A stretch of DNA of 64,000 nucleotides from Actinomycetota bacterium (GCA_013152275.1 JAADGS010000036.1:12-64011); one strand, 5' to 3'. Positions 45,363 to 64,000 are shown, counted from the stretch's first letter. A program made the numbers and translations. Notes: a model not told the origin generated them from the letters alone.

Positions 45363-47669
45363 TTACGAGTTCGACATGGCACGCCAGATCGTCTCCGAGG
45401 TGAACGGCGGTTTCGTCAACCGGACACCCACGGCGTCGTAGATGGCGTTGGCGAGGGTGGGGATCGGGGCGTTGATACCGATCTCCGCGATGGACTTGGC
45501 CCCCATCGGTCCGGTATCTTCGTATGTCTCGACGAGGATCACTTCCAGGGGGGGCATGTCCGTCGTCGCGGGGATCTTGTAGCGGCCGAGGTCCGGGTTG
45601 CGCATGCGGCCGTACTTGTCGAAACGCATCTCTTCCATCAGCGCATACCCGATTCCATTCGCGATCGCCCCTTCGAGCTGCCCTTCTGCCAGGCGAGGAT
45701 TGATCGGGGTGCCACAGTCGGCTGCGGCGACGTAACTCACGATCTTCAGCTTCCCGGTCTCGACATCGACGGCAACTTCCGCAAACGATGCCAGGAACGG
45801 CGGTGGGGATACGTCGGCGACGAACGAGGCGGTCGCCCCGATCTGGAACTGCTCCACACCGTAGAGAGAGCGCAGGGCCACATCGGAAAGCGTGACACTC
45901 CTGGTGTCTCTCGCGATCACCGTGCCATCGACGAACTCGAGGTCGTCGGCATCGACCTTGAGCATGGCCGAGGCGACTCCGGCGATCTGAGAACGAACGG
46001 TCTCCGCTGCACGCACGACGGCGGAGCCGGATACATAAGTCGTCGACGATGCGTAGGCACCGACGTCGAACGGGGTGACGTCGGTATCGGAGGACAGCAC
46101 GAGGATCTTGGAGAGCGGGACACCGAGTACTTCTGCGGCCATCTGGGCGAGGATGGTGTCCGAGCCGGTCCCCAGGTCCGTTGCACCGATGAGAAGGTTG
46201 AACGAGCCGTCATCGTTCATCTTGATCGTTGCTGCGGCCATGTCGACGGCGGGAATACCGGATCCCTGCATATGGATCGACATGCCGACGCCGTGGATCC
46301 ACGGTCCTTCGCGCCGTCGAGCACCGCGCTTCTCGGCCCAGCCGATACGTTCGGCACCGATCTCGATGCATTCGTCGAGACCACAGCTTCCAACGGTCTG
46401 CGGCACTCCCTTGCGCCCCTCGCCGAGTTCTTCAAAGATCGGACTGGTCTCTCCGGACCGGATGTGGTTGATGCGCCGTAGCTCGAGAGCGTCCATGCCC
46501 AGCTTCTCGGCGAGCAGGTCGATCGCCGTCTCCAATGGGAAGATCCCCTGGGTGGCCCCGTAGCCCCGGTACGCGCCGCCGACGGGAAGGTTCGTGTAGA
46601 TCCCACGGGCGGAGAAGCGCACATTCGGTGCCTTGTTGTACATCGGCAGGGTTTTGGAACCCGTGTTGGAGACGACGGTGAGGTTGTGGGCGCCGTAGGC
46701 TCCGGTGTTCTCGAGCGCCTTCATGTCGATGGCCTGAAGCTGTCCGGTCTCGTCGGCGGCAAGCCGGACGGTCACCCTCATGGGGTGGCGGGTCCGGGAT
46801 GCGTAGAACTCTTCCGCCCTGGTGTATTCGAGACGGCTCGGCATGCCGGTCCGTAGGGTGACGAGACCGACGAGGTCTTCGATGAGGATTTCCTGCTTGA
46901 CGCCGAACCCTCCACCGATACGTGGCTTGATGACGCGGATCCGACTCGCGGGTACTCCCAGGACGCGAGCAATGATCCTGCGCACGTGGAACGGAACCTG
47001 CGTGCTCGTGTACAACACCAGCCGGGCGTTGTCGTCCAGGTAGGCGACCGAGATGTGTGGTTCGAGGGGAACGTGCTGCGCATACTGGGTCTCGCCGGTG
47101 AATTCGGCCGACGCGAAGGCATCGGCGATCGCCTTGTCGACGTCGCCTATGTTTGCCTCGACCGCTCCGGCGATGTTGTGTTCCGCATCCCAGATTCCCG
47201 AAGCGTCGGGTTCGTCGTGGATCACCGGAGCGCCAGGGGCCATGGCCGCGTCGATGGAGAGCACGGGTTCCAGGGGCTCGTAGTCGACTTCGATCAACTC
47301 GAGAGCCTTCTCTGCGACCGCGCGTGAGGCGGCGGCAACGGCGGCAACCCGATCGCCGATGAAGCGGACCTTCTCATCGAACATGCGGGTGTCGTAGGGG
47401 GAGGGTTCGGGATGTCCCTGGCCGGCCGTCGTGTAACGGACGGCGGGGGTGTTGGCATATGTGAGAACGAGTGCGACGCCTTCGAGCGCCTCGGCCTTCC
47501 GGGTGTCGATGGCCTTGATGCGCGCGTGGGCATGCCGGGAGCCGAGCACGGCGATGTGCAACATTCCGGGAAGATCGAGGTCGCCGGCGAACACGGGCTT
47601 GCCGGTGACCAGCGCCCTGCCGTCGACTCGTCGTTCGTTCTGTCCGACGACGTTGAACCTCTCAGTCAT
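45363..47669 (-). CDS. xanthine dehydrogenase family, molybdopterin-binding large subunit
   Basis: RVDGRALVTGKPVFAGDL N-terminus and aldehyde oxidase/XDH a/b-hammerhead plus MoCo domains. 8-nt overlap with the Fe-S subunit gene. Confidence 0.92.
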   Translation of the reverse strand: MTERFNVVGQNERRVDGRALVTGKPVFAGDLDLPGMLHIAVLGSRHAHARIKAIDTRKAEALEGVALVLTYANTPAVRYTTAGQGHPEPSPYDTRMFDEKVRFIGDRVAAVAAASRAVAEKALELIEVDYEPLEPVLSIDAAMAPGAPVIHDEPDASGIWDAEHNIAGAVEANIGDVDKAIADAFASAEFTGETQYAQHVPLEPHISVAYLDDNARLVLYTSTQVPFHVRRIIARVLGVPASRIRVIKPRIGGGFGVKQEILIEDLVGLVTLRTGMPSRLEYTRAEEFYASRTRHPMRVTVRLAADETGQLQAIDMKALENTGAYGAHNLTVVSNTGSKTLPMYNKAPNVRFSARGIYTNLPVGGAYRGYGATQGIFPLETAIDLLAEKLGMDALELRRINHIRSGETSPIFEELGEGRKGVPQTVGSCGLDECIEIGAERIGWAEKRGARRREGPWIHGVGMSIHMQGSGIPAVDMAAATIKMNDDGSFNLLIGATDLGTGSDTILAQMAAEVLGVPLSKILVLSSDTDVTPFDVGAYASSTTYVSGSAVVRAAETVRSQIAGVASAMLKVDADDLEFVDGTVIARDTRSVTLSDVALRSLYGVEQFQIGATASFVADVSPPPFLASFAEVAVDVETGKLKIVSYVAAADCGTPINPRLAEGQLEGAIANGIGYALMEEMRFDKYGRMRNPDLGRYKIPATTDMPPLEVILVETYEDTGPMGAKSIAEIGINAPIPTLANAIYDAVGVRLTKPPFTSETIWRAMSNS

Positions 47670-48129
47670 CGGTGACCTCCCGCATCCTGGCTGCGGCGAG
47701 CTGCACTGCTTCGATCGGTTTGACGTAGCCGGTGCAACGACACAGGTTTCCACGAAGAGCCGCGCGGACGTCGGCTTCGGAGGGATGGGGGTCGCTGTTC
47801 AGCAACGCGGCCGCGCTCAGAAGCATCCCCGGGGTGCAGAATCCGCACTGGACGGCACCCGTATCGAGGAAGGCGTTCTGGAGAGGGTGCAGCACCCCTT
47901 CCGAAGCGAGGCCTTCCACCGTGAGGATTCGCTTGCCGTCTGCCGCCGGAGCCGGGTAGTTGCAGGAGGTGATGGCTCGCCCATCGACGAGTACGGCACA
48001 TGCGCCGCAGTCACCGTTGTCACAGCCGTTCTTGACGCCTTTGAAACCCAGTCTCCTCAGCAGAACGAGCAGACTCTCGCCGGCGCCCACGTGTTCGTCG
48101 AACGGCTGATCGTTGACGGTGAATCTCAC
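47662..48129 (-). CDS. xanthine dehydrogenase family, [2Fe-2S] small subunit
   Basis: CDNGDCGACAV, CGFCTPG and CRCTGY cysteine motifs. The GTG start overlaps the FAD-subunit stop (GTGA). Confidence 0.92.
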   Translation of the reverse strand: MRFTVNDQPFDEHVGAGESLLVLLRRLGFKGVKNGCDNGDCGACAVLVDGRAITSCNYPAPAADGKRILTVEGLASEGVLHPLQNAFLDTGAVQCGFCTPGMLLSAAALLNSDPHPSEADVRAALRGNLCRCTGYVKPIEAVQLAAARMREVTDD

Positions 48130-48956
48130 ACGTACACCTCCTCGCCGGTGGTCTCGGTGAGGCAACGGCGCACCAAGACTCTTGTCAGGTGGCGGCGGTA
48201 GTCGGCGCTCGCCCGGGGGTCGTTGCGCACCTCGACGGTCTCCATGGCCTTTTCCGATGCTCGGCCGATGGTTGCGGCGTCGAGGCGGTGGCCGACCAGA
48301 ACCGATGAGGCCTCACTCAGCTCGACGGCCAGGGCCGGTCGCTCGCCGACGACGACCCTGGCCCAGGAGACGACATCGCCTTCGAGACGGATCGCGCAGG
48401 CGACGTTCAAGATGGCGAGGTCATACGTGGTGCGGGCAAACTTTCTGAAGGCGGCTCTTCCCGTGTCGCGCTCGAGATGAACCCCGGTCACGACCAACCG
48501 GGTTCTGTTCTTGCGCGTCGAGTAAAAGTCCGCCAGCGGCATGTGGTGATGGCCCCCGTCGAAGAAGGAGATCCTCGCGTCGACGGAGAGGAGGACCGGC
48601 ACGACATCGGAGAGCCTGCCTCGTGCCAGGTGCCCGCCGATCGAGGCGGCGTTGCGATGCAGCGGAGACGCGACCTGGGCGAGCATCGTCGGGATCACAC
48701 CGGACCAGATATCGGCGAACGGCGAGTAGTCGAGTACATCGGTCAGTGTCGTCAGCGCTCCGATATGGAAGCCTGTGTCGTCGGCCGTGATTCCCCCGAG
48801 ACCCGTGCGCGAGAGATCGACGAGTGTGGTGACATCGGCCGGAGGGTGCACGGTGAGGTCGGTGCCACCAGCGACGAGGCGGGCGCGCGTCCCCAACTTC
48901 TGAAGAGTCCTGAACGCCTCCTCGACGGACGCAGGGTGGAGGTATTCGGTGAACAT
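48126..48956 (-). CDS. xanthine dehydrogenase family, FAD-binding medium subunit (CoxM-like)
   Basis: RLVAGGTDL motif and FAD_binding_5 plus CO-dehydrogenase flavoprotein C-terminal pattern. Confidence 0.9.
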   Translation of the reverse strand: MFTEYLHPASVEEAFRTLQKLGTRARLVAGGTDLTVHPPADVTTLVDLSRTGLGGITADDTGFHIGALTTLTDVLDYSPFADIWSGVIPTMLAQVASPLHRNAASIGGHLARGRLSDVVPVLLSVDARISFFDGGHHHMPLADFYSTRKNRTRLVVTGVHLERDTGRAAFRKFARTTYDLAILNVACAIRLEGDVVSWARVVVGERPALAVELSEASSVLVGHRLDAATIGRASEKAMETVEVRNDPRASADYRRHLTRVLVRRCLTETTGEEVYV

Positions 48957-51827: not shown

Positions 51828-53461
51828 GACGCCGGACACGTCTTCCTGGAATAGGTTGACCACACCTTGTGAGACCCGGAATACACTCGGAGTCTGCTGG
51901 TGCTCTTGGTCGAGCCGTTCAGGCAAACCTTCTTGACGGTCCAGTTACCTGCCGCCACTGCTGCCGAGCCTTGGCCGTTCACATTCGGGTATACGAGGAT
52001 CACGTCGTCGGGGTTGCCGCCCCTGGGCAGGTACTCGTAGTGCTCGACCGCCTGGTTGTTGTCGGTGAACGTGATCAGTCCGTATCCGGACGGCGTGGAG
52101 AGGGTCATGATCAGCGTCTGATCGTTCGAAACCGTGACGTTCTGCGTCCGCGATTGGTGCCCGAATGGGGACGTCGCGGTGACGGTGACGGTGACGTGGT
52201 TTCCTTCGACGAAGTGGGCAACCTCACCGTTCTGGTCGGTTGTCGCCGTGCTGGTGCCGGCAGCCACGACGAAGGTGAGTCCTACGCCGCGAATCGGAAC
52301 GCCTGTGGCGTCCTTGACCTGCACCGTGAGGGTGGAACCGACAGCGACCGTCAGTGCGAATGTCTCGGTGTGGTCCGCGGTGTCGGGGTAGCCGGACGGG
52401 ACCAGCACGTTGGAACGGTCGACCTGGGAGTAGCCGTTGGCCAGCAGGGAGAACGAGTAGGAGCCCGGGATGAGCGGGGCACCGTTTGCCTCGGTGATAT
52501 CCCAGCCGCTCCCGTTCCATTCGGGGGAGGCTTCGGTAAAGGTGACCACGCCGAGCGGTTCGGTGAGCGTCAGGGTCGCAGGTCCTCCGACAGGTAATCC
52601 GTTCGCGTCGTCGTACATCTCGACGTGAAGGACGGCGGGATGGTAGATGCGCACCGTCATATTTGCGGTCTGGGTTGGTGCGACGTGGATTCGCTCTGCT
52701 TCGGTCCCGATGTCGCCCGGATGGATGCGCCACCCGCCGGAGTCGAGAGAACCCATCGAGCCTCCGAGCCTGGCGTAGTAGTAATAGTCGACCCCGGAAC
52801 TGGTGTTGGCATCCAGTCCGGCGAAGATCTGGGTCGCGTCGGGTGTTCCCGGAAAGGCGACGAAGCCCGTGTCTTCCACGAGGAAGACCTTCGGGTAGGG
52901 CAGGATGCTCGGTGAAGCACCGTCCGGTTCCACTTTCACGAGGCTGACAATCGCATTCGCCTTGTTGTCGTCGGCGGCCATCGACGGTGGAGCGATGATC
53001 GTCGTCATCGCGATCGGCTTGAAATCGCCGGTGGTACGGCTGACCGTGACGATGACCTGTTTGTAGTCGATGCCAGAGTCGAAATGCCCTTGTACGCCGT
53101 CACCGCCTTGGGGAATGACGTCTTCGCCGGGATTGATGCTTCCGAAGTACTTGATGTCGGTGGAGACGGTGAAGTTCAGCCCGTTGACCGTCACCGTCTC
53201 AGAGGGCTGCAACACCCCCGAAGGCAGGCTGGACGTGTAGCCGACGTCTTGGTAGGCGAGACTGCGCAGTTCCTCGATACGGCCCTGAGCGATGTTCGTG
53301 GCGATGGTGGCCTGGCTCGACCTGCGCAGAATGTCGAATCCACTGGAGATCGGCCCGATGGTCATGACGATGACTGCACCGAGGATCGCCAAGGCAACCG
53401 CGACCTCCACCACGGTGAAACCATGGTCGGACCGGACATTCGGTTTCATACCGTTGTCCAT
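51824..53461 (-). CDS. large prepilin-type pseudopilin (PilV-like N-terminus, beta-sandwich C-terminal domains)
   Basis: SDHG|FTVVEVAVALAILG. PilV-like ATNIAQGRIEELRSL. C-terminal carboxypeptidase-regulatory-like stretch VQVKDATGVPIRGVGLTFV...TDQNGEVAHF. ATGA overlap with the next gene. Confidence 0.75.
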   Translation of the reverse strand: MDNGMKPNVRSDHGFTVVEVAVALAILGAVIVMTIGPISSGFDILRRSSQATIATNIAQGRIEELRSLAYQDVGYTSSLPSGVLQPSETVTVNGLNFTVSTDIKYFGSINPGEDVIPQGGDGVQGHFDSGIDYKQVIVTVSRTTGDFKPIAMTTIIAPPSMAADDNKANAIVSLVKVEPDGASPSILPYPKVFLVEDTGFVAFPGTPDATQIFAGLDANTSSGVDYYYYARLGGSMGSLDSGGWRIHPGDIGTEAERIHVAPTQTANMTVRIYHPAVLHVEMYDDANGLPVGGPATLTLTEPLGVVTFTEASPEWNGSGWDITEANGAPLIPGSYSFSLLANGYSQVDRSNVLVPSGYPDTADHTETFALTVAVGSTLTVQVKDATGVPIRGVGLTFVVAAGTSTATTDQNGEVAHFVEGNHVTVTVTATSPFGHQSRTQNVTVSNDQTLIMTLSTPSGYGLITFTDNNQAVEHYEYLPRGGNPDDVILVYPNVNGQGSAAVAAGNWTVKKVCLNGSTKSTSRLRVYSGSHKVWSTYSRKTCPAS

Positions 53462-53538
53462 CGGTAGGAGCGCCTGTTCGCTTGAGGGTTGTTGGACATC
53501 GAAATGAAGTGACTAGTGCCCTTTGCCGCCAGATCTCT

Positions 53539-53588
53539 GAACCCAGGGCTCAGGGGGGTCGCCACGACCCCTACGAACCCAGGGTTCG
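53539..53588. promoter_or_regulatory. two GAACCCAGGG(C/T)TC palindromes flanking a GGGGTCG-CCA-CGACCCC hairpin
   Basis: 53539-53551 is a near-palindrome. 53574-53588 is a perfect CGAACCC-A-GGGTTCG. The hairpin lies at 53555-53571. All sit in the divergent intergenic region between the pilin operon and ssnA. Confidence 0.35.
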
Positions 53589-53682
53589 CAGGTACCCGTG
53601 TGTCGGCGTGATCGGTCTCGATGACATCAGCACGAACCTACGACTCGGAACACTAGGTTGAAGTTGACGAACGGGAGATCCC

Positions 53683-54705
53683 ATGCCGGCGACAACTCCA
53701 GGAATGGTCTGCGCACACCACCACCTCTACTCGGTGCTTGCACGGGGCATGCCTGCTCCGCCAAAAACACCGACCAATTTCCTCGAGATTCTCGAACAGG
53801 TGTGGTGGCGCCTCGATATCGCTCTCGATCTCGACATGTTGGAGTGGTCGGCAAAGCTGGGCGCACTGGAGGCTCTGGAGCAAGGCACCACGGTGATCGT
53901 GGATCACAACGAATCGCCAAACGCCATCGAGGGCAGTCTTTCTGTCATCGCGGACGCCTGCGCGGAAGTCGGGGTGCGAGTGGTGTGTGCGTACGGCATC
54001 ACGGATCGTCACGGGCATGAGGCGGCGCTGAGAGGCCTGGCGGAGAACGAACGTTTCATCAGGGGCGGTGGCAGGGGATTGGTCGGCATTCACGCAGCGT
54101 TCACCTGTGCCGACGAGAGTCTCGAATCTGCAGCGGGGATCGCGAGAGACCTCGGCGTGGGAGTGCACATCCACGTCGCGGAAGGCGAGGTGGACATCGA
54201 AGCCTGCCGGCGACTTGGTGCGCTGACACAGGATGATTGGCTTCTCATCCACGCGGTCCACCTGCCCACCGATCATGGCCTCTCCGGAACGATCGTGCAC
54301 AACCCACGCTCGAATCTCAACAATGCCGTTGGATATGCGAACCCTGCCCGGTTCACCAACCCGGTCGCCTTGGGAACGGACGGAATCGGTGCTGCCATGA
54401 TCGAGTCGTTCCGTCTCGCCTACGTCATGCAACGGTCCGTGGACGTGACGGCGAGCCCGGAGACGGCATGGGGCTGGCTGGAAGAAGGCTGGTGTATCGC
54501 CCCAGAGGCACTCGATGATCTGGTGACCTGGTCGTACGATCCTGTGGACCCGTGGCATCTTGCGTTCACATCCGGCGTGCATCCGGTGAGGGTCGAGATC
54601 GCGGGAGAGGTCGTCTTCGAGGACGGGAAACCGACGCGGGTCGATGCAAAGGAGATTCGGGCGAAAGCCCGAGAGCAGGCCATGCGCCTCCACGCCCGGC
54701 TATGA
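53683..54705 (+). CDS. ssnA: SsnA-like amidohydrolase (N-terminally short form)
   Basis: PGMVCAHHHLYSVLARG...LEQVWWRLDIALD, HIHVAEG, VHNPRSNLNNAVGY and GTDG motifs. SD GGGAGA. An in-frame TGA lies 18 nt upstream of the ATG. Confidence 0.85.
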   Translation: MPATTPGMVCAHHHLYSVLARGMPAPPKTPTNFLEILEQVWWRLDIALDLDMLEWSAKLGALEALEQGTTVIVDHNESPNAIEGSLSVIADACAEVGVRVVCAYGITDRHGHEAALRGLAENERFIRGGGRGLVGIHAAFTCADESLESAAGIARDLGVGVHIHVAEGEVDIEACRRLGALTQDDWLLIHAVHLPTDHGLSGTIVHNPRSNLNNAVGYANPARFTNPVALGTDGIGAAMIESFRLAYVMQRSVDVTASPETAWGWLEEGWCIAPEALDDLVTWSYDPVDPWHLAFTSGVHPVRVEIAGEVVFEDGKPTRVDAKEIRAKAREQAMRLHARL

Positions 54706-54747
54706 GTGGCCACGAGCATCGGCCGGCGAGAAGAAGGAGAGCAAAGG

Positions 54748-57700
54748 ATGTCTGACCGATTCCACCCGATCTCGATGCGTCAACTCAGCCATTGGATCTT
54801 CTCTGATCTTGCGGAAAACGACTGTGTCTTTGGTGTCCCGCGCTCGGCGTTCTTCGTCCCCGGCCCGGACGATCACTTTCGCACAAACAACTACGGCTAC
54901 CCGATGGACAACCCGTTTGGCGTGGCAGCCGGGCCGCACACGCAGATGGCGCAGAACATCGTCGTCGCCTGGCTGAACGGCGCACGTTTCATCGAGTTGA
55001 AAACGGTCCAGACGCTCGACGAGTTGGACGTGCCCAAACCGTGTATCGACTGTCAGGACGAGGGCTACAACGTCGAATGGTCCCAAGAGTTGAAGATTCA
55101 CGAATCGTTCGACGAGTACCTGCGTGCCTGGGTGCTGATCCATGCGCTCCATCGCAAGCTCGGATTCGCCGGGGACGGTCCCGGGATGATCTTCAACATG
55201 AGTGTCGGGTACGACTACGCGGGTATCCGTAGGCCCAACGTGCAGTGGTATCTCGACCAGATGCACGACGCCTCCGCCTATCTCGACGAGTATGTCGACA
55301 TCGTGGCGGAGGACTGTCCCGAGGTGCGGGACATCGACATCCCTGCCCGGCTGTCCGACACGATCACCCTCTCCACGATGCACGGCTGCCCACCCGACGA
55401 GATCGAGAAGATCAGCAAGTACCTGATGAGGGAGCGGGCGCTCCACACGAGTGTGAAGTCGAATCCGACGCTTCTCGGTCCGGGGAAGGTTCGTGAGATC
55501 CTTCACGACGACCTGGGGTACGTCGACGTTACCGTGCCGGACGAGGCCTTCGAACACGACCTGCGCTACGAGGATGCCGTGGCGATGTTTCACCGTCTCC
55601 TTCGTGTCGCACACTCGATGGGGGTCACCTTCGGTGTGAAGCTCTCCAATACCCTCGAGGTTCTGAACTTCAGAGAGGTCTTCGAGGAAGCGACGATGTA
55701 CATGTCCGGGCGCGCGCTGCACGCGATCACGGTGAATGTCGCCAACGAGCTCAACGAGGAGTTCAAGGGAGATCTCCCCATCTCGTTCGCCGGCGGAGCC
55801 GACGCATTCAATGTTCCGGCGCTGCTGCGCTCGGGGATGAAGAGTGTCACCGTGTGCTCCGACCTGCTCAAATCGGGCGGCTACATGCGAATGCTGCAGT
55901 ACTTCGAGACGACCGACGCGGCAATGGGCCTCGTCGGAGCGACGGACCTCGCCGACTTCATCGCCCGCTCTGCAATCCGTGACCCGGGGTTCGGCGATTT
56001 CGCATCGATCCTGAGCACGACATCGTTCAGCGATACCGGCCTGAATCCTGACATGGACGAGTGCGAAGCGCTGGCCGCCTTTCTCTCTGCGGGGTTCGAA
56101 GGAAGCGCGTCGGAGGCGATTCGGGATTGGGGAGTGCGACGAGGTTTGACGGAGACGGAGGTCGGGGAGTTCGCCGATGAGGTCGTGAAGGCCCTGGCGA
56201 GGATCAACCTGCGCTCCTATGCGAGCCAGGTTCGACGGGCGTTTGAGCTCAAGAAGAGCTCATTCCTTCGTGACAGGTCCAAGACTGCCCGTCCGTTGGG
56301 GCTCTTCGACTGCATCGAAGCTCCCTGTGAGGACGAATGTCCCGTGAATCAGCGTGTCCCCGAGTACATGCGCGCGGTTCAGGATGGGGACTGGGCTCGA
56401 GCCGTCGAGGTGACTCGCCAGGACAACCCGATTCCGACGATCCTGGGCGAGGTCTGCGACCACCTCTGTGAGCTCACGTGCATCAGGACCCACTACGACG
56501 AGCCCCTTGCGATTCGCGGCATCAAGCGTTTCATCATGAAGCACGAAACAGACCCGAATCTGGTGCCCCAGGCACCGCCGAACGGCATACGGGTCGCGAT
56601 CATCGGTACGGGACCGGCCGGAATCTCGGCTGCCGAGCGTCTCGCGATGAACGGATTCTCGGTAACGATGTTCGAACAACACCTCTATGCGGGTGGCATG
56701 GTGGCCGGAGCGATTCCCGAGTACCGCCTGCCCCAGCCCGAAATCGACCACGATCTCGAGGTGCTCGACGAACTCGGTGTGGAGATTCGCTACGGACAGA
56801 CGGCAGGCAAGGATTTCACCGTCTCTGATCTGCGGGAACAGGGGTACGCATACATCGTCGTGGGCGTCGGGGCACAGATCGGCAAGAGGCTCGGTCTGGA
56901 GGGCGAAGACGCCGCCGGAGTGATCGACGCCTTGCACTTCTTGAGAGAGGCGCGGGAGGGGCACCCGGTACGGGTCGGGAAACGTGTGGCAGTCATCGGG
57001 GCCGGTGACACGGCGATGGACTGTGCGCGGACGGCCTGGCGCCTCGGGGCGGACGAAGTGACGGTCGTCTACCGGCGGACGATCGACCAGATGCCGGCCG
57101 ATCGGGAAGAAGTCCACGCGCTCCTCGAGGAGGGCATCGGCGTGGTGGAGTTGGCAAGTCCCGTCGCTCTCCACATCGAAGGCGGTGCTCTCACAGGATT
57201 GGTCTGTGTCCGCAACGAATACCGGGGAGATCGGGACGGGTCCGGGCGCAAGATTCCGCATCCGATCGAGGGCTCCGAGTTCGAGCTTCCATTCGACATG
57301 TTGATCTTGGCCATCAGTCAGCACGCGTCGATCGACTTCTTCGGAGAGGAGGTGCCACGCCTCACCGATCGCGGATATCTCGAAGTCGATCCGTTGACGT
57401 TGGAGACTTCGGTCCCAGGGATCTTCGCCGCGGGCGATGTTGCGGGGTCGGGTCCGGCCTCGATCGTCAAGGCCGCGGCCGATGGCAAGGCGGTGGCGGC
57501 AGCAATCATTGCTCGAGAAGGCGGCGTGGTCGAGCCTGCGCCCCGGGTGCTACCCGACATTCCCGTTGCGGACCTTCAGGTACGAAAAGCCCATCGGGAG
57601 TATCGCGTTCCGATCACTCATGCGCCGGTCGCCGAGCGGAAGAACTTCGCCGTCTCGACCTTCCCGTACACGGTCGAGGAGGCCCGGGCGGAGGCTGCTC

Positions 57701-58305
57701 GCTGCCTCGACTGCGACCTGTACTGCAGTATCTGCGTGGGAGTGTGTCCCAACATGGCGCTCATGACATATGTTTCGAAGCCGATCAGCGTGGATCTCCC
57801 GGTCGTTACGATCAACGACGGTGCGCATGAGGTGATCGATCACACTCCGTTTCGTGTGGAGCAGGACTATCAGATCGCTGTGCTGACGGATTTCTGCAAT
57901 GAATGCGGCAACTGTGTGACGTTCTGTCCGACCGCGGGCGAGCCGTATCGTGACAAGCCCCGTTTGTACCTGAACCGCGAAGACTTCCTTGCCGAGACCG
58001 GCAATGCCTTCATGCTGTCCGAGAGGGACGGGGTGGCATCGATGCAGGGGCGGTTCTCGGGAGAGACCCACGAGATCGAGCTGAACGACTCCCTGTCGTA
58101 TCGGGGGCCAGGGGTGTCGGCTCGCCTCGACCCGGGCACATTCGCAGTTCTCGATGTGACCGGTTCCGACGGCTCTGTTCTCCGGTTCGAGGAGGTCGCC
58201 ATCATGTACGCGCTCCTGCGTGGGCTGCAGGAGTCGATGCCGCAACTTCCTCGATTCGGAGCCGAGGACAGAGGGCGCATCGCGCCGCCCCAGTTTGCCT
58301 CCTGA
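54748..58305 (+). CDS. ygfK: YgfK-like multidomain Fe-S flavoprotein oxidoreductase
   Basis: N-terminal DHOD/DPD-like barrel (NPFGVAAGPHTQ). GltD-like RVAIIGTGPAGISAA...AGGM and VIGAGDTAMDCA. C-terminal ferredoxin motifs CLDCDLYCSICVGVCP and CNECGNCVTFCP. SD GGAGAG precedes the ATG at 54748. Confidence 0.9.
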   Translation: MSDRFHPISMRQLSHWIFSDLAENDCVFGVPRSAFFVPGPDDHFRTNNYGYPMDNPFGVAAGPHTQMAQNIVVAWLNGARFIELKTVQTLDELDVPKPCIDCQDEGYNVEWSQELKIHESFDEYLRAWVLIHALHRKLGFAGDGPGMIFNMSVGYDYAGIRRPNVQWYLDQMHDASAYLDEYVDIVAEDCPEVRDIDIPARLSDTITLSTMHGCPPDEIEKISKYLMRERALHTSVKSNPTLLGPGKVREILHDDLGYVDVTVPDEAFEHDLRYEDAVAMFHRLLRVAHSMGVTFGVKLSNTLEVLNFREVFEEATMYMSGRALHAITVNVANELNEEFKGDLPISFAGGADAFNVPALLRSGMKSVTVCSDLLKSGGYMRMLQYFETTDAAMGLVGATDLADFIARSAIRDPGFGDFASILSTTSFSDTGLNPDMDECEALAAFLSAGFEGSASEAIRDWGVRRGLTETEVGEFADEVVKALARINLRSYASQVRRAFELKKSSFLRDRSKTARPLGLFDCIEAPCEDECPVNQRVPEYMRAVQDGDWARAVEVTRQDNPIPTILGEVCDHLCELTCIRTHYDEPLAIRGIKRFIMKHETDPNLVPQAPPNGIRVAIIGTGPAGISAAERLAMNGFSVTMFEQHLYAGGMVAGAIPEYRLPQPEIDHDLEVLDELGVEIRYGQTAGKDFTVSDLREQGYAYIVVGVGAQIGKRLGLEGEDAAGVIDALHFLREAREGHPVRVGKRVAVIGAGDTAMDCARTAWRLGADEVTVVYRRTIDQMPADREEVHALLEEGIGVVELASPVALHIEGGALTGLVCVRNEYRGDRDGSGRKIPHPIEGSEFELPFDMLILAISQHASIDFFGEEVPRLTDRGYLEVDPLTLETSVPGIFAAGDVAGSGPASIVKAAADGKAVAAAIIAREGGVVEPAPRVLPDIPVADLQVRKAHREYRVPITHAPVAERKNFAVSTFPYTVEEARAEAARCLDCDLYCSICVGVCPNMALMTYVSKPISVDLPVVTINDGAHEVIDHTPFRVEQDYQIAVLTDFCNECGNCVTFCPTAGEPYRDKPRLYLNREDFLAETGNAFMLSERDGVASMQGRFSGETHEIELNDSLSYRGPGVSARLDPGTFAVLDVTGSDGSVLRFEEVAIMYALLRGLQESMPQLPRFGAEDRGRIAPPQFAS

Positions 58306-58598
58306 CCCGAGAGCAAGGCCCAAGGCTCGAGGTTGCCTGCTTTGATGAAGGCGTCTTCTCGCCCGCCGTGTGCCCACGTGTCGAACGGCGGCGCACGGTC
58401 CTGGAAGAGGGAAGAGTCCGCTTCGAAAGGCACCCGTCGCATCGAGCGCCTCGTCGAGAGGGCAATTCGGCGGATGCGGCGAGGATCACGGCAGGAAAGA
58501 GTGGGGGGCGACGAGACACCACGCGAAAAGCGATAGGCTTGGATCAATCCGCACCCGTTTCTCGGTCGAGACGCGGCCTCGAGATGAAGGAGAGAGTC

Positions 58599-59552
58599 AT
58601 GAGAAGCTTCGCCGGTCGGGACATCTTGTCCCTCAAAGGATTCGAACGTGCCGAATTCGAGCACGTGTTCCAGACCGCCACCGAGCTGGAGCCGATCGCC
58701 CGGGAGCGCCGGAACACCGATCTGCTGGCGGACAAGACGCTTCTCACCGCCTTCTACCAGCCGTCGACCCGAACGAGGATGGCCCACGAAGCCGCGATGC
58801 ACCGACTTGGCGGCCATGTGCTGGGCTTCGCCGACGCGAAGATGACCCGCGCGGGTGACTTCTACCAGGAGTCGATCAAGGACACGGTTCACATGCTGGA
58901 GTACTACGGCGACGTGATCGTGATGCGGCACTTCCAGCAAGGTGCTCCACAAGAGGCGGCCAAATGGTCCAGCGTGCCGGTCATCAACGCCGGGGACGGC
59001 TGGGGCGAACACCCCACACAGATACTGACCGACCTGTACACGGTGCTGACCGAGAAGGGCACGATCGACGGGTTGACATTCGTCGCGATCGGAGACATGC
59101 GGATGCGCACGATGCATTCGCTCGGCTACGCCCTCACACAATTCGATGCCCAGATGATCTCGGTTGCACCGCCCGAAATGTCGCTCACCGACGACTTCAA
59201 GGCCGAACTCGCCGAGCAGAATCTCTTCGTCAGAACGGCCGAGCATGTCGCCGACGTCATCGGCGAGGCGGACGTGATCTACATGGAGCCGGTGGTCCAG
59301 GCCGACTACACCAAGGGTCGGGACGAGCGTGCCGGTGAGGCAGGCTCCACACCGGACAACTACAAGGTGACCCGTGCACTGCTGGCCGACAAGGCAAAGT
59401 CGGATGCGATCATCCTGCACTCGCTCCCGCGTATGGACGAGCTTCCTGCCGACGTGGATGCAACCAAGCACGCCCGGTACTGGCAGGAGGCCTACAACGG
59501 CGTCGTCATGCGGATGGCGCTGCTGGCACTCGTGCTGGGCGCAACGGAGTAG
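58599..59552 (+). CDS. aspartate carbamoyltransferase catalytic-chain-like protein
   Basis: Motifs QPSTRTR, GEHPTQILTDLYT and HSLPRMDELP. SD AAGGAGAG precedes the ATG at 58599. No pyrI or pyrC neighbours. Confidence 0.82.
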   Translation: MRSFAGRDILSLKGFERAEFEHVFQTATELEPIARERRNTDLLADKTLLTAFYQPSTRTRMAHEAAMHRLGGHVLGFADAKMTRAGDFYQESIKDTVHMLEYYGDVIVMRHFQQGAPQEAAKWSSVPVINAGDGWGEHPTQILTDLYTVLTEKGTIDGLTFVAIGDMRMRTMHSLGYALTQFDAQMISVAPPEMSLTDDFKAELAEQNLFVRTAEHVADVIGEADVIYMEPVVQADYTKGRDERAGEAGSTPDNYKVTRALLADKAKSDAIILHSLPRMDELPADVDATKHARYWQEAYNGVVMRMALLALVLGATE

Positions 59553-59553
59553 G

Positions 59554-59588
59554 GAAGTACCTGGTACTTCGTACTTGGTACGAAGTAC
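59554..59588. promoter_or_regulatory. overlapping palindromes GAAGTACC-T-GGTACTTC and GTACTTCGTAC-TTG-GTACGAAGTAC
   Basis: Begins 2 nt after the stop at 59552 and lies 36 nt before the ygeW-like start. The 18-mer 59557-59574 recurs inverted at 62902-62919. Confidence 0.45.
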
Positions 59589-59623
59589 GAAACACCCGAT
59601 ACGGCTCAACGCAGGAGGACGAG

Positions 59624-60598
59624 ATGCAGACTGGACTGAGGGGTCGTGACATGATCACGACCCAGGAGTGGACCAAAGACGAGATCGACACCGTTCTGGA
59701 TCTTGCGTTCGATCTCAAGCGCAAGCAGGCAGTCGGCGAGCCGCACGCCTACCTTCGTGACAAGGTGCTGGCGATGTTGTTTTTCTTCTCGAGTACCCGA
59801 ACGAGGGCGAGCTTCGAGGCAGGGATGGCGCAGCTCGGTGGACACGCGATGTTCATGGAGTCACGAACGACACAGATCAGCCATGGCGACACGGCAACCG
59901 AGATCGGCGAGATCCTCGGCCGCTACAGCGCGGGAATCGCGATTCGGCAGGTCGACTGGGGAGTCGGCAACGCCTATCAGCGAGCCGTGGCGGACGCGAG
60001 CCGTGTTCCGGTGCTGAACATGCAGTGTGAGATGTATCACCCCCACCAGATCCTTGCCGATGTGATGACCATCATCGAGAAGAAGGGCGACCCGCGCGGG
60101 CGCACGCTCAACGTGAGTTATGCGTATGCTTCGAGCTACCAGAAGCCGCTCAGTGTGCCGCAGAGTCTCATCTTGCTGGCGACCAGATTTGGCATGAACG
60201 TGCGCCTGACTCGTCCGCCCGAGTTCAAGCTGATGCCCGAGATCGTCGCCCAGGCCGAAGAGAATGCTCGGCGGTCCAAGGGCTCGTTCGAGATCCTCGA
60301 GGATTTCGAGGACGGTTTCCGTGATGCCGACGTTGTATACGCGAAGAGCTGGGGAGCGATGCTCACCACCACGGACGATGAGAAGTCGGCGGCAATCGGG
60401 TCCAAGTACACGGACTGGATCACCGACGAGCGGCGAATGGCTCTGGCGAAGGAGGACGCGATCTACATGCATCCGCTTCCGGCCGACCGTAATGTCGAGG
60501 TGACCGACGGAGTTCTCGACGGGCCGCACAGCGTCGTGTTCGATCAGGCGGAGAACCGGCTCCACGCACAGAAAGCAGTGATGGCGTTGACGATGTAG
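59624..60598 (+). CDS. ygeW: YgeW-type (knotted, catabolic-type) carbamoyltransferase
   Basis: SSTRTR, GNAYQRAV...VLNMQCEMYHPHQILAD, YAYASSYQKPLSVPQSLILLATRFGMNV and MHPLPADR. These track my recollection of E. coli YgeW more closely than OTC or ATC. SD AGGAGG. Confidence 0.85.
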   Translation: MQTGLRGRDMITTQEWTKDEIDTVLDLAFDLKRKQAVGEPHAYLRDKVLAMLFFFSSTRTRASFEAGMAQLGGHAMFMESRTTQISHGDTATEIGEILGRYSAGIAIRQVDWGVGNAYQRAVADASRVPVLNMQCEMYHPHQILADVMTIIEKKGDPRGRTLNVSYAYASSYQKPLSVPQSLILLATRFGMNVRLTRPPEFKLMPEIVAQAEENARRSKGSFEILEDFEDGFRDADVVYAKSWGAMLTTTDDEKSAAIGSKYTDWITDERRMALAKEDAIYMHPLPADRNVEVTDGVLDGPHSVVFDQAENRLHAQKAVMALTM

Positions 60599-60643
60599 CA
60601 CCGGGTGTGAACCAGCCGGTGCGGGGCATCGAGAAGGAGAGAT

Positions 60644-61603
60644 TTGTTGAGCAACACCAGACGTCCGCTCGCCGTGGTGGCCATTGGGGGCAATTCGCTG
60701 ATCAGGGACGCCGAGCATCGCTCGGTGGAAGATCAGTACATTGCGGCCGGAGAGACGGATCAGCACATCGCCGAGTTGATTCGTACGGGTTGGGATGTAG
60801 CTATCACTCATGGGAACGGACCTCAGGTGGGTTTCATCCTGAGACGCTCCGAGCTCGCAAAGCACGAATTGCACGAGGTTCCGCTCGATGCCTGCGGTGC
60901 CGATACACAGGGAGCGATCGGCTACGCGCTCCAGCAGAATCTGTATAACGACTTCCTCCAGCTCGGCATCGACAAGACCGTGGCAACGGTTGTGACGCAG
61001 GTCGAGGTGGACGCCACCGATCCGGCGTTCGAGCATCCGGCAAAGCCGATTGGCACGTTCATGGATGCCGAGGCGGCCGCCCGCCGACGGGAAGTCGACG
61101 GCTGGGAGGTCGTGGAGGACGCAGGCCGGGGCTGGCGCAGGGTCGTGGCATCACCTCTCCCGAAGAGGATCGTCGAGATCGAGGCCATCCGGGAGTTGCT
61201 CGGAGCGGGGATGGCGGTCATCTGTGTCGGGGGAGGAGGCATCCCTGTCGTCGCCGACGAGACTGGTGCCCTCACGGGAGTCCCTGCAGTGATCGACAAG
61301 GACCGTGCCTCCGCCCTACTCGCAAAGGAACTCGATGCGGACCTGCTGCTGATCAGCACCGCGGTCGAGAAAGTGGCGTTGGGCTGGGGTACGCCGGAGC
61401 AGCGCTGGGTCGATCGGATGAGTCTCGAGGAGGCGAAGCAGTACCTTGGCGAAGGCATCCATTTCGCCAAAGGGAGCATGGCGCCGAAGATCGAGGCGGC
61501 GATCACCTTCCTCGAGGGCGGCGGTCGGGAAGTTCTCATCACGGACCCGGCGAACATCGAACGAGGTGTTGCGGGTGAGACCGGGACCCGGATCGTGCAA
61601 TGA
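60644..61603 (+). CDS. arcC: carbamate kinase
   Basis: VVAIGGNSL, ITHGNGPQVG and GGGGIPV motifs. TTG start after GAAGGAGAG. Confidence 0.92.
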   Translation: MLSNTRRPLAVVAIGGNSLIRDAEHRSVEDQYIAAGETDQHIAELIRTGWDVAITHGNGPQVGFILRRSELAKHELHEVPLDACGADTQGAIGYALQQNLYNDFLQLGIDKTVATVVTQVEVDATDPAFEHPAKPIGTFMDAEAAARRREVDGWEVVEDAGRGWRRVVASPLPKRIVEIEAIRELLGAGMAVICVGGGGIPVVADETGALTGVPAVIDKDRASALLAKELDADLLLISTAVEKVALGWGTPEQRWVDRMSLEEAKQYLGEGIHFAKGSMAPKIEAAITFLEGGGREVLITDPANIERGVAGETGTRIVQ

Positions 61604-62856
61604 CACCAGATCATGTCACGGGTTTGCGCTGCGTCATCTGTGGAAAGATCTACGCACCTGACGAAGTGGAGTATGTCTGCCCCGAGCACGGGTATGACGG
61701 CATTCTCGATGTCCTGTATGACTATGACCTGATCGCTTCTCGGACACGGCGGGACGATCTCGGGGCGGAGTGGTCCATGTGGAGGTACCGGCCACTGCTT
61801 CCCATCGCGGCGGACGCTGCAGTCCCACCCCTCGCCGTCGGGTGGACCCCTCTCTACGAGCTGCCCAAACAGGCCGAGAAGCTCGGGCTTGCCAGGCTCT
61901 GGATCAAAGACGGCGGGAGGGAACCGACCGCGTCGTTCAAGGATCGGGCGAGCGCAATCGCCATCGTCAAGGCCCATGAGAGAGGAGCAACGGTGATCAC
62001 CACCGCCTCGACGGGGAATGCCGCCGCCGCGCTCAGCGGCCTCAGCGCGTCGGTGGGCCAGGAGAACGTGATCTTCGTCCCCCGTTCCGCTCCAGAGGCG
62101 AAGATCGCCCAGCTCCTTGCCTTCGGCTCGACGGTATTCGCGGTTCGAGGCACGTACGACGATGCATTCGAACTCTGTCTTCGCGTCGCGGATGCATATG
62201 GCTGGTACAACCGCAACACCGCCTACAACCCCTACATGAGCGAAGGCAAGAAGACGGCGGCGTATGAGATCGCGGAGCAGCTCGGGTGGGAATCGCCGGA
62301 CGCCGTGCTCGTGAGTGTCGGAGACGGGTGCATCATCGGAGGTCTCCACAAGGGTTTCAAGGACCTGCTTGCCCTCGGCTGGATCGATCGGATTCCACGG
62401 CTCATCGGTGTCCAGGCCGAGGGAAGCAACTATCTGGCGGAGGCTTGGGAGACAGGTGAGGACGTGTTGACCAAGCCGGCCATCGACGCCCAAACCGTCG
62501 CGGATTCGATCTCGGCAGGGTTGCCGAGGGACCGGATCAAGGCGATGGCGGCGGTCGTCGAGACCGACGGCGCGTACGTGACCGTCAGTGACGACGAGAT
62601 CCTGGCGGCAATCCCCGCGATGGCGAGAGCCAGCGGCGTGTTCGGTGAACCGGCCGGCGCTGCCGCATACGCCGGGCTCCTCAAAGCGAAGGAACTCGGG
62701 TTGCTCACCGCGGGAGACAAGGCAGTTGTCCTGAACACCGGAAGCGGTCTGAAAGACGTGGCGTCGGCAGTTCGAGCCGCCGGCATGGCAGGAAGTGTCT
62801 CGTATGAGATCACGCCCACCCTGGAAGCCGTACGGGCGGTGATGGAGGCCCCGTGA
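61600..62856 (+). CDS. threonine-synthase-family PLP enzyme with N-terminal zinc ribbon
   Basis: ATGA overlap with the carbamate kinase. CVICGKIY...CPEHG, PLP-lysine motif TASFKDRAS, and TASTGNAAAA. Confidence 0.85.
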   Translation: MTPDHVTGLRCVICGKIYAPDEVEYVCPEHGYDGILDVLYDYDLIASRTRRDDLGAEWSMWRYRPLLPIAADAAVPPLAVGWTPLYELPKQAEKLGLARLWIKDGGREPTASFKDRASAIAIVKAHERGATVITTASTGNAAAALSGLSASVGQENVIFVPRSAPEAKIAQLLAFGSTVFAVRGTYDDAFELCLRVADAYGWYNRNTAYNPYMSEGKKTAAYEIAEQLGWESPDAVLVSVGDGCIIGGLHKGFKDLLALGWIDRIPRLIGVQAEGSNYLAEAWETGEDVLTKPAIDAQTVADSISAGLPRDRIKAMAAVVETDGAYVTVSDDEILAAIPAMARASGVFGEPAGAAAYAGLLKAKELGLLTAGDKAVVLNTGSGLKDVASAVRAAGMAGSVSYEITPTLEAVRAVMEAP

Positions 62857-62894
62857 TTCTGCACGAGCCGCACCTTCCTCCCGTGTACGAAGTA

Positions 62895-62922
62895 CGAAGT
62901 ACCAGGTACGAGATACCTCTCA
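62895..62922. repeat. inverted copy of the GTAC-rich motif (GTACGAAGTAC GAAGTACC-A-GGTACGAG)
   Basis: 62902-62919 is the exact reverse complement of 59557-59574. Intergenic, 20 nt before the next start codon. Confidence 0.45.
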
Positions 62923-62941
62923 CCCCAGACTGGAGATACTC

Positions 62942-64000
62942 ATGATCGACCTCACCATCCACGAAGGCCCGCTGGAACGGGCGCTGCAACGCGCCAGAGA
63001 GCGCAACATCATCATCCCCACGTTCGCTCAGCAGCGTGATCCGCGTCTCATCCCGGACGCCATCAAGGAGAAGTTGCGGGGTGTGGGTCTCTGGGACCTC
63101 GACCCGATCAACCTGTTCAGGATCACCTGGAAGAACGAGCCGGTCTCCAGCGGCGGTGGCTTTGGGGGAGTGAACTTCATCGAGTATCCGAAGGAACTGA
63201 CCGGCATCGAGGCGCGCATCGTGTCGCTGGTAGGGAAGTGGTTCCCGACAGGTGCCCACAAGGTCGGTGCGGCATTCGGCTGCCTGGTGCCACGACTGGT
63301 CACCGGACAGTTCGATCCGACGACCCAGAAGGCCGTGTGGCCTTCAACCGGCAACTACTGCAGAGGAGGAGCCTATGACTCGCATCTCCTCGCGTGCGAC
63401 TCGGTCGCGATCCTGCCGGAGGGGATGAGCAAGGAGCGGTTCGAGTGGCTGGCGAAGGTCGCCGGTGAGGTCATCGCCACTCCGGGCACCGAGAGCAACG
63501 TGAAGGAGATCTTCGACAAGACCTGGGATCAGAGCGTCGGGAGAAGACGTCGTGATCTTCAACCAGTTCGACGAGTTCGGGAACTATCTCTGGCACTACA
63601 CGATCACAGGTCCCGCCATGGCCGAAGTGCTCGCGCAAGTCATGGGCGCGCAAGACCGCTATCGAGGGGTCGCTCTCACCACGGGATCCGCGGGAACGAT
63701 CGGGTCGGGTGACTACCTCAAGCAGCAGTATCCGACCTCGAAGATCGTTGCCAGTGAGGCGCTGCAATGTCCCACGTTGCTCGAAAACGGGTTCGGGTCC
63801 CATCGCATCGAGGGCATCGGTGACAAGCACGTGCCATGGATTCACAACGTGAAGAACACGGACTTCGTCACCGCCATCGACGACGAGGCGACGATGCAGC
63901 TCCTGCGACTGTTCAACGAGCCTGTCGGTCAGGAGTACCTCGTCGAACGTGGCGTGGCGGCAGAGTTCGTGGAGAAACTGCCCCTTCTCGGCATCTCCAG
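62942..64000 (+). pseudogene. PLP-dependent fold-type II (TrpB-like TGAHK motif) enzyme, reading frame broken near 63525; runs off the window
   Basis: Frame 1 is convincing up to ...NVKEIFDKTW and then turns Arg-rich. The +1 frame from 63528 reads IRASGEDVVIFNQFDEFGNYLWHY...TTGSAGTIGSGDYLK...HRIEGIGDKHVPW and stays open to the window end. Confidence 0.6.

Follow-up and report, generated by a model that had tools for sequence, protein, structure and literature searches.

A pseudo-ATCase and a compact YgeW-type carbamoyltransferase as a candidate pair for two-ATP reductive urate breakdown

Two carbamoyltransferases beside one carbamate kinase

What does a bacterium gain from two different carbamoyltransferases that are encoded directly upstream of a single carbamate kinase? 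This question is raised by a 64,000-nucleotide (nt) stretch of DNA from an Actinomycetota bacterium (GCA_013152275.1 JAADGS010000036.1:12-64011), hereafter termed the window. An earlier note on this DNA had described an aspartate carbamoyltransferase (ATCase)-like enzyme and a YgeW-like enzyme as neighbours, followed by arcC and with no pyrI, pyrC or carAB nearby, and had proposed that the ATCase-like protein is catabolic and that two successive or alternative ureido intermediates are cleaved. Our translations and profile searches confirm this arrangement. Specifically, an ATCase-derived carbamoyltransferase of 317 amino acids (aa) (CT1; 58599-59552), a compact YgeW-clade carbamoyltransferase of 324 aa (CT2; 59624-60598) and a carbamate kinase of the ArcC/YqeA type (60644-61603) form one operon-like block on the plus strand, with ssnA and ygfK directly upstream. 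The motifs that had been named are present (STRTR, HPTQ and HSLPR in CT1; STRTR, HPHQ and HPLPADR in CT2), both proteins carry both Pfam OTCace domains, and pyrI, pyrC and carAB were not found on the 90-kb contig. Carbamate kinase makes ATP from carbamoyl phosphate and ADP, and the enzyme encoded here scores 385 bits against NF009007 (cut-off 266), falls just short of the cut-off of TIGR00746 (354 versus 358) and shares 51% identity with E. coli YqeA.

The genes upstream of this block point to a pathway. A reductive urate (2,8-dioxopurine) route, encoded by ssnA, ygfK, xdhD/ygfM, ygeW and yqeA, was described in 2025 (10.1101/2025.05.19.654654 = PMC12507026; 10.1101/2025.04.24.650524; commentary PMC12990295). 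According to these sources, urate is converted to 2,8-dioxopurine, and reduction by YgfK together with ring opening by SsnA yields ureidomethyl-hydantoin. HyuA opens the remaining ring to give 2,3-diureidopropionate, which carries two ureido groups; YgeW phosphorolyses one of these, with ATP formed via YqeA, while YgeY hydrolyses the other, and YgeX converts the resulting 2,3-diaminopropionate to pyruvate (PMC12507026; 10.1101/2025.04.24.650524; PMC12990295). A second carbamoyltransferase is mentioned neither in the two 2025 pathway papers nor in the commentary (PMC12990295). On the contig analysed here, ssnA, ygfK and arcC share their surroundings with XdhD-like genes, a second xanthine dehydrogenase (XDH), an 8-oxoguanine deaminase and an adenosine deaminase, and this gene content, with ssnA and ygfK as marker genes, identifies the cluster as encoding a variant reductive urate pathway.

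Observed directly are the identities of the genes, their residue changes and synteny, the gene complements of the genomes and the placement of the families. On this basis we propose that CT2 and CT1 between them phosphorolyse the two ureido groups of 2,3-diureidopropionate, with a yield of two ATP. The substrate of each enzyme, the sequence of their reactions and the number of ATP formed are inferred from these observations, and we regard the proposal as on balance probable.

CT1 lacks the aspartate-binding residues of ATCases

Databases name the CT1 family aspartate carbamoyltransferase, and there are reasons for doing so. CT1, which starts at the ATG at 58599 behind a GAAGGAG ribosome-binding site (the same Met is found in all 80 homologues), is 37% identical to E. 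coli PyrB, has ATCases as its closest solved structures (1ML4, 246 bits) and scores 256 bits against the ATCase model TIGR00670, for which the cut-off is 237 (homologues, 246-274 bits). In an alignment of 81 family members with five canonical PyrB sequences, S52-T55, R105, H134, Q137, R167 and L267 are kept in 81/81 CT1 sequences, and these comprise the full carbamoyl-phosphate site and R167. The carbamoyl-phosphate motifs SxRT and HPxQ, as found in PyrB, are likewise invariant across the family. A structure model of CT1 (predicted local distance difference test score, pLDDT, 78.7) superimposes with a TM-score of 0.85 on ATCases in complex with N-(phosphonacetyl)-L-aspartate (PALA). The models of CT1 and CT2 (pLDDT 72.4) were built from shallow alignments and support folds only, and the 80s and 240s loops of CT1 have pLDDT < 50.

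The second-substrate site, which the earlier note had singled out for comparison, gives a different picture. Aspartate binding is defined by R229 and Q231, which contact the beta-carboxylate, and by K84 (PMC4581275). In 81/81 CT1 sequences K84, which PyrB contributes from the neighbouring subunit, is replaced by Y, R229 by P and E50 by Q, and the HP[LG]P motif of PyrB reads HSLP instead of HPLP, such that P266 is also replaced. Furthermore, the RxQxER motif of PyrB is lost, with P-V at the RxQ positions, G166 is deleted, and a 5-aa insertion after position 229 lengthens the 240s loop (EPVVQ[AP]DYTK). A maximum-likelihood (ML) tree (36 rows, several long reference branches, midpoint root) unites the CT1 sequences (support 100/100) on a long stem and has E. 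coli-type PyrB as their sister group (98/93). TIGR00670 does not separate the CT1 family from true ATCases.

Pyrimidine synthesis in the host appears to be encoded elsewhere. The window's genome (G000) has a canonical pyrB (306 bits, TIGR00670) beside pyrC on contig C84, and carB on C90; the possibility that CT1 is this genome's only pyrB was rejected because of the pyrB-pyrC pair on C84. Two further genomes with CT1 (G001 and G002) also carry a separate pyrB-pyrC pair. E. coli PyrI as a query gave no match in the window's genome, PyrI was not found in any of 80 related loci, and none of these loci places CT1 in a pyr context that would indicate a PyrB role in pyrimidine synthesis. In a complete 2.5-Mb Anaerolineaceae chromosome (G003; locus L037) and a Thermotogae metagenome-assembled genome (MAG; G005), pyrC, pyrE and carB were not found and no gene other than CT1 reaches the ATCase cut-off; the other members of the transcarbamylase family in these two genomes are an OTCase and a putrescine carbamoyltransferase. 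CT1 thus persists in genomes from which pyrimidine synthesis is missing. Because K84, R229 and RxQxER are lost invariantly, and because the pyrimidine genes lie separately, the sequence evidence leads us to conclude that CT1 is not an aspartate carbamoyltransferase, and the database label is very likely wrong. As a separate observation, OTCase is present without carB in G003 and G005, and the carbamoyl phosphate for arginine synthesis in these organisms perhaps comes from catabolic carbamoyltransferases or carbamate kinase.

CT1 as a member of pseudo-ATCase group 2

A set of 'pseudo-ATCases' was set apart from true ATCases by Barba et al. in 2013 (PMC4016543). Group 1 of this set is the assayed Rubrobacter UGTCase (Rxyl_2847), which converts allantoate and inorganic phosphate to ureidoglycine and carbamoyl phosphate and whose gene adjoins that of a carbamate kinase (PMC4016543). 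Group 2 consisted in 2013 of a single protein without a proposed function, A1SH59 from Nocardioides sp. JS614 ('ATC_III_HSLP'), with a ygeW homologue, xdhABC and hyuA as neighbours (PMC4016543). In the supplementary alignment, A1SH59 has the same six signature stretches as CT1, namely AFYQPSTRTR, AKMTRAGFYQES, GDGWGEHPTQ, GDMRMRTMHS, IYMEPVVQADYT and HSLPRMDEL. Because the two proteins agree at each of these stretches, we identify CT1 as an orthologue of pseudo-ATCase group 2. It also shares with this group the H[ST]LP motif (HSLP), the loss of RxQ and a branching point at the base of the E. coli/archaeal-type ATCases (ATC II), and with A1SH59 a ygeW homologue and xdh genes as neighbours. The 'GX[SC]' motif column of Barba et al. 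was not reproduced in our CT1 alignment.

The group of 2013 was a single protein, whereas relatives of CT1 now occur in at least 594 GTDB species genomes from several phyla, are tied to ssnA/ygfK and carbamate kinase, and have a candidate substrate. The family is unusually well conserved, with 75-85% identity between phyla, yet in the window's own class only about 11 orthologues (67% identity or more) were found among 151 sampled genomes. This patchy occurrence within a class, combined with conservation across phyla, suggests that an accessory module has spread laterally. As far as the literature shows, the family has been known as an orphan, and its functional reading and a two-ATP variant of the pathway are new.

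UGTCase offers the closest comparison. Like CT1 it is derived from ATCase and encoded beside carbamate kinase in a purine-degradation cluster, and, taking over from the amidohydrolase AAHase (a member of peptidase family M20), it splits one ureido group off a diureido acid by phosphorolysis. The two enzymes differ in their motifs, in that UGTCase has HPLA and AIA/AIS/SIA where CT1 has HSLP and P-V, and UGTCase is listed with an equivalent of K84 (K106; PMC4581275) where CT1 has Y. They also differ in setting: UGTCase is part of the oxidative route (uricase, allantoinase), which was not found in the CT1 genomes tested.

CT2 as a compact member of the YgeW clade

In the same ML tree, CT2 and E. 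coli YgeW (YTCase) form one clade (support 100/99) with an AOTCase-like sequence as sister (99/95), and the name 'YgeW-like' given to CT2 by the earlier note is thus upheld. Nevertheless, CT2 falls below all NCBIfam equivalog cut-offs, including those for OTCase (TIGR00658, 251 versus 281 bits), AOTCase (250 versus 288) and YgeW itself (171 bits on TIGR03316, cut-off 500; 177 bits on NF005538, cut-off 453). It shares with YgeW several features that are absent from OTCases, namely an extended 120s loop (IR..xxGxGNxY), N[LM]QC[DE]..HPxQ, a Pro-rich AYxxSYxKP[LI]SVPQ stretch, Y[AP]KSW and LPAD. The extended 120s loop and the Pro-rich loop are sequence signatures of knotted transcarbamylases of the AOTCase/SOTCase/YTCase type, and the best fold match of CT2 (from the model with pLDDT 72.4) is the AOTCase 3KZM. 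The OTCase hallmarks DxxxSMG and HCLP are replaced in CT2 by AKSWGAM and HPLP.

All 66 CT2 sequences examined keep the proposed second-substrate residues of YgeW (Q98, Q160, S200, K203, K270, L331 and E344), and D124 and D334 fall in gaps of the CT2 alignment. CT2 differs from YgeW in length (324 versus 396 aa), in lacking the additional helices at both termini and the pair of helices inserted into the 240s loop, and in having HPLP instead of HCLP. Both enzymes have a carbamate kinase partner and ssnA and ygfK in the cluster; unlike YgeW, CT2 has a second carbamoyltransferase alongside, and YgeY and YgeX are absent here. The clade and pocket residues identify CT2 as a compact member of the YgeW clade, and we propose that it acts as a 2,3-diureidopropionate carbamoyltransferase.

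Conservation of the pair and of its neighbours

Gene neighbourhoods were counted in the 80 related loci, which represent at least six phyla (Chloroflexota, Actinomycetota, Verrucomicrobiota, Spirochaetota, Zixibacteria and Thermotogae). Of the 68 loci with enough flanking sequence, 66 have CT2 downstream of CT1, and in 57 the two are directly adjacent; arcC follows CT1 in 58 of 65. The adjacency of CT1, CT2 and arcC is not due to chance. The commonest other neighbour of CT1 is an 8-oxoguanine-deaminase-like gene (50/80 loci), and a ThrC-like gene is found in 35. Genes for a 504-aa pyridoxal phosphate (PLP) enzyme, XDH subunits, SsnA/YgfK, and XdhD-like and HyuA-like proteins are also frequent, and SsnA-type genes are present in 5/5 further CT1 genomes tested, not always in the cluster. 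In one Chloroflexota CT1 cluster (L026), the HyuA-like gene is flanked by two conserved-looking genes of 203 aa (L026:16818-17429) and 523 aa (L026:18903-20474), for which neither a Pfam/NCBIfam match nor a homologue in the window's genome was found.

Two genes of the described pathway are often missing. An orthologue of YgeY was not found in 8/10 CT1 genomes tested, including the window's genome (100% complete by marker genes), and YgeX was not found in 5/5 genomes tested, nor in the cluster of the window's genome. The ThrC-like gene and the gene for the 504-aa PLP enzyme accompany CT1 in many phyla. In two MAGs (L010 and L016), described as Nocardia-like and also as Nitriliruptoraceae, a YgeX-like gene occupies the position that these two genes hold in the relatives L017 and L019; the L010 copy (L010:3447-4631) scores 387 bits against the diaminopropionate ammonia-lyase model (cut-off 276). 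This arrangement suggests that the ThrC-like and 504-aa PLP enzymes are a non-orthologous replacement of YgeX. YgeY was not found in the L010 and L016 genomes. The YgeX-like gene in these clusters implies that diaminopropionate is still the end point, and therefore that a second decarbamoylation is needed.

A candidate route with two phosphorolytic steps

Taken together, these features fit a route in which the XdhD-like enzyme, YgfK and the short SsnA would convert urate to ureidomethyl-hydantoin, and a hydantoinase, for which the sole candidate in the genome is unlinked on contig C7, would open the ring to give 2,3-diureidopropionate. CT2 would then phosphorolyse one ureido group, as E. coli YgeW does, and CT1 would phosphorolyse the remaining one, most likely the 2-ureido (N-carbamoyl-alpha-amino) group. 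CT1 would thereby stand in for the hydrolase YgeY, which is absent from the window's genome. The single carbamate kinase would receive both carbamoyl phosphates, for a yield of two ATP per urate instead of one, and 2,3-diaminopropionate would pass to the two unusual downstream PLP enzymes, which lie at the place of YgeX in some relatives.

CT1 is assigned to the second ureido group because it is the only conserved candidate, lies among the partner genes of the YgeW-type enzyme, would feed the same kinase and occurs where YgeY is missing in 8/10 genomes. Its predicted pocket, which keeps R167, the arginine for the alpha-carboxylate, and has lost K84 and R229, fits an N-carbamoyl-alpha-amino acid with a beta-amine or ureido group in place of a carboxylate. 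UGTCase, which acts on another diureido acid, allantoate, is a close precedent. Liu et al. report that YgeW takes the 3-ureido group first; if CT2 does the same, CT1 would be left with the 2-ureido group. More tentatively, and for the family as a whole, CT1 may be a 2-ureido-3-aminopropionate (or diureidopropionate) carbamoyltransferase that, with its YgeW-type partner, lets anaerobic urate breakdown yield two substrate-level ATP.

These results support the earlier interpretation and make it more specific. The reductive urate context and the lost aspartate-binding residues argue for a catabolic CT1, and the suggestion of two successive ureido intermediates fits the surroundings, since the pathway intermediate 2,3-diureidopropionate carries exactly two ureido groups. 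The earlier note had held that its reading would fall if CT1 were the sole pyrB and kept every aspartate-binding residue; neither applies, given the pyrB-pyrC pair on C84 and the loss of K84, R229 and RxQxER.

Several observations weigh against the proposed route. A YgeY orthologue stands alongside CT1 in 18/80 loci and is directly adjacent, often upstream, in 14/77; the genomes G002 and G005 hold both YgeY and CT1; and two Verrucomicrobiae loci (L011 and L012) pair YgeY with CT1, with neither CT2 nor arcC nearby. CT1 is therefore not a simple one-for-one replacement of YgeY: its role may be distinct from that of YgeY, or the two may be parallel options, one energy-conserving and one irreversible. 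Furthermore, the cluster in the window's genome lacks a hydantoinase. The only D-hydantoinase/dihydropyrimidinase, on C7 (G000 C7:62748-70277, L099), has a TIGR03842 F420-dependent luciferase-like monooxygenase (LLM) oxidoreductase, a class III aminotransferase and an ATP-binding cassette (ABC) exporter as neighbours, and this cluster may instead serve F420-type reductive degradation of pyrimidines (or hydantoins). The ureido group taken by E. coli YgeW is disputed between the two 2025 groups (PMC12990295). Finally, the structure models are of moderate confidence, and the substrate loops are exactly their poorly modelled parts.

Alternative roles for CT1

The co-occurrence with YgeY fits an account in which CT1 is active and catabolic on another ureido substrate, such as allantoate, ureidomethyl-hydantoin, N-carbamoyl-beta-alanine or an intermediate of an undescribed purine route, and in which YgeY or another hydrolase completes the known pathway. 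The 18/80 loci with YgeY (adjacent in 14/77) speak for it, as do L011 and L012, where CT1 and YgeY occur without CT2 or arcC. So do the sister group UGTCase, which acts on allantoate, the 8-oxoguanine-deaminase-like neighbour in 50/80 loci and the unknown genes in Chloroflexota clusters. However, searches of five CT1 genomes yielded neither uricase nor 5-hydroxyisourate (HIU) hydrolase, leaving no apparent oxidative route to allantoate and making it an unlikely substrate. CT1 also lacks the UGTCase motifs HPLA and AIA/AIS/SIA, and the 8/10 genomes without YgeY would still need a second decarbamoylation to reach diaminopropionate. We judge this account unlikely, although it deserves to be taken seriously.

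It is still less probable that CT1 and CT2 are alternatives for one and the same step, acting on D and L forms or regio-isomers of the diureido substrate while an unrecognised hydrolase removes the second ureido group. Hydantoins racemise easily, and the earlier note had allowed for 'alternative' intermediates; in the 2025 pathway literature, E. coli YgeX takes both D- and L-diaminopropionate, and SsnA yields two products in vitro. Yet CT1 and CT2 represent the deepest split in the family, one on each branch, and their second-substrate sites differ considerably, which fits different chemical groups better than mirror images, and no candidate hydrolase is conserved in the loci without YgeY. That CT1 is a genuine ATCase after all, either a second biosynthetic PyrB or a catabolic enzyme acting on carbamoyl-aspartate, seems hardly credible. 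The TIGR00670 score (256 versus 237 bits), the best Protein Data Bank (PDB) matches (1ML4; TM-score 0.85 to the PALA complexes) and the database name would favour it, but the invariant loss of RxQxER and K84, the absence of pyrI and pyr context from 80 loci, the separate pyrB-pyrC pair, the retention of CT1 in genomes without pyrC, pyrE and carB, and the earlier separation of the family as 'pseudo-ATCases' (PMC4016543) oppose it. CT1 further differs from PyrB in its longer 240s loop and replaced P266 and E50.

Implications of a two-ATP variant

If CT2 and CT1 do act in succession on 2,3-diureidopropionate, two phosphorolytic steps would take the place of the one phosphorolytic (YgeW) and one hydrolytic (YgeY) step of the described pathway and would double its ATP yield. 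This would matter for understanding how anaerobes in the environment subsist on purines and for designing probiotics that degrade urate, in which flux is set against energy conservation, and would give a function to an enzyme family orphaned since 2013. The pair would also provide an indirect handle on which ureido group YgeW removes: an ATCase-type ancestry would go with the N-carbamoyl-alpha-amino group and an AOTCase/YgeW-type ancestry with the omega-ureido group, which would settle the order of cleavage in favour of '3-ureido first by YgeW'. The systematic mislabelling as PyrB can mislead metabolic reconstructions, and some carriers lack pyrimidine synthesis.

Other features of the locus

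From 53683 to the end of the window, the plus strand carries a single compact row of genes. The row starts with an SsnA-type amidohydrolase of 340 aa (53683-54705; NF005540, 253 bits; 33% identity to E. coli SsnA), which matches profile positions 58-442 of NF005540 and thus lacks about 57 N-terminal profile residues. The idea that a nearby insertion had truncated the gene was dropped, since the short form recurs in relatives: four from the Acidimicrobiia have the same start (..TPG[ML]VCAHHHLY), with only GC-rich non-coding sequence upstream. The short SsnA is therefore a natural form and a trait of the lineage. It is followed by a YgfK-type Fe-S flavoprotein (54706-58305; TIGR03315 Se_ygfK, 907 bits versus a cut-off of 835), the dearomatising reductase of the pathway. 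On the minus strand, a set of genes encodes an XdhD-like molybdenum hydroxylase (45363-47753), a small Fe-S subunit (about 47725-48135) and a YgfM-like FAD subunit (48126-48956). Nothing else in the genome matches E. coli XdhD as well (40% identity, 542 bits), and XdhC and YgfM are matched too; the Pfam domains are MoCoBD_1/2 and FAD_binding_5. This set (45363-48956) is a candidate for the reductase that converts urate to 2,8-dioxopurine.

The contig continues for 26 kb past the window, and this part encodes a Zn-alcohol-dehydrogenase-like protein, a PucD-type xanthine dehydrogenase (the second XDH) and the two deaminases. Within the window, the start of the ThrC-like PLP enzyme gene (61600-62856, plus strand) overlaps the arcC stop (ATGA). 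Its product passes the threonine synthase cut-offs, and the genome has a separate, paralogous housekeeping thrC on contig C7. This thrC was matched as two adjoining pieces in different frames (G000 C7:18134-19082), maybe through a small assembly error.

The last gene of the row encodes the 5' part of a CysK/TrpB-like PLP enzyme (62942-64000, plus strand, continuing past the window end) and shows an apparent frameshift after 63528. Contigs of four public metagenome runs carry an extra AC at this point; three are from hydrothermal vents (one study, with one possibly the source sample) and one is from marine sediment. The extra AC restores a frame of about 490 aa that matches the intact 504-aa orthologue in L026. 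Its reading as a pseudogene was therefore rejected in favour of a 2-nt (AC) omission in the assembly.

A non-coding gap of 293 nt (58306-58598) separates ygfK from CT1, and its sole open reading frame is Arg-rich GC-frame noise. An Rfam scan of 53000-64000 gave no match at E<=1, in this gap or elsewhere, and a consensus promoter or terminator was not found there, with no more scan hits than in shuffled sequence. The gap probably serves the CT1 operon as promoter or leader, and is probably the junction of two operons, as gene order near CT1 varies among relatives. In Chloroflexota relatives, a gene for a GntR/UTRA regulator lies directly upstream of CT1 (L026:9234-9971). A repeat search of the window revealed a GTAC-heptad repeat (runs of GTACNNN) in the spacer between CT1 and CT2 (59557-59602). 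It has a 25-nt inverted partner of 96% complementarity at 62885-62909, in a heptad run (62874-62915) that follows the ThrC-like gene. This inverted pair brackets CT2, arcC and the ThrC-like gene, and may be an operator.

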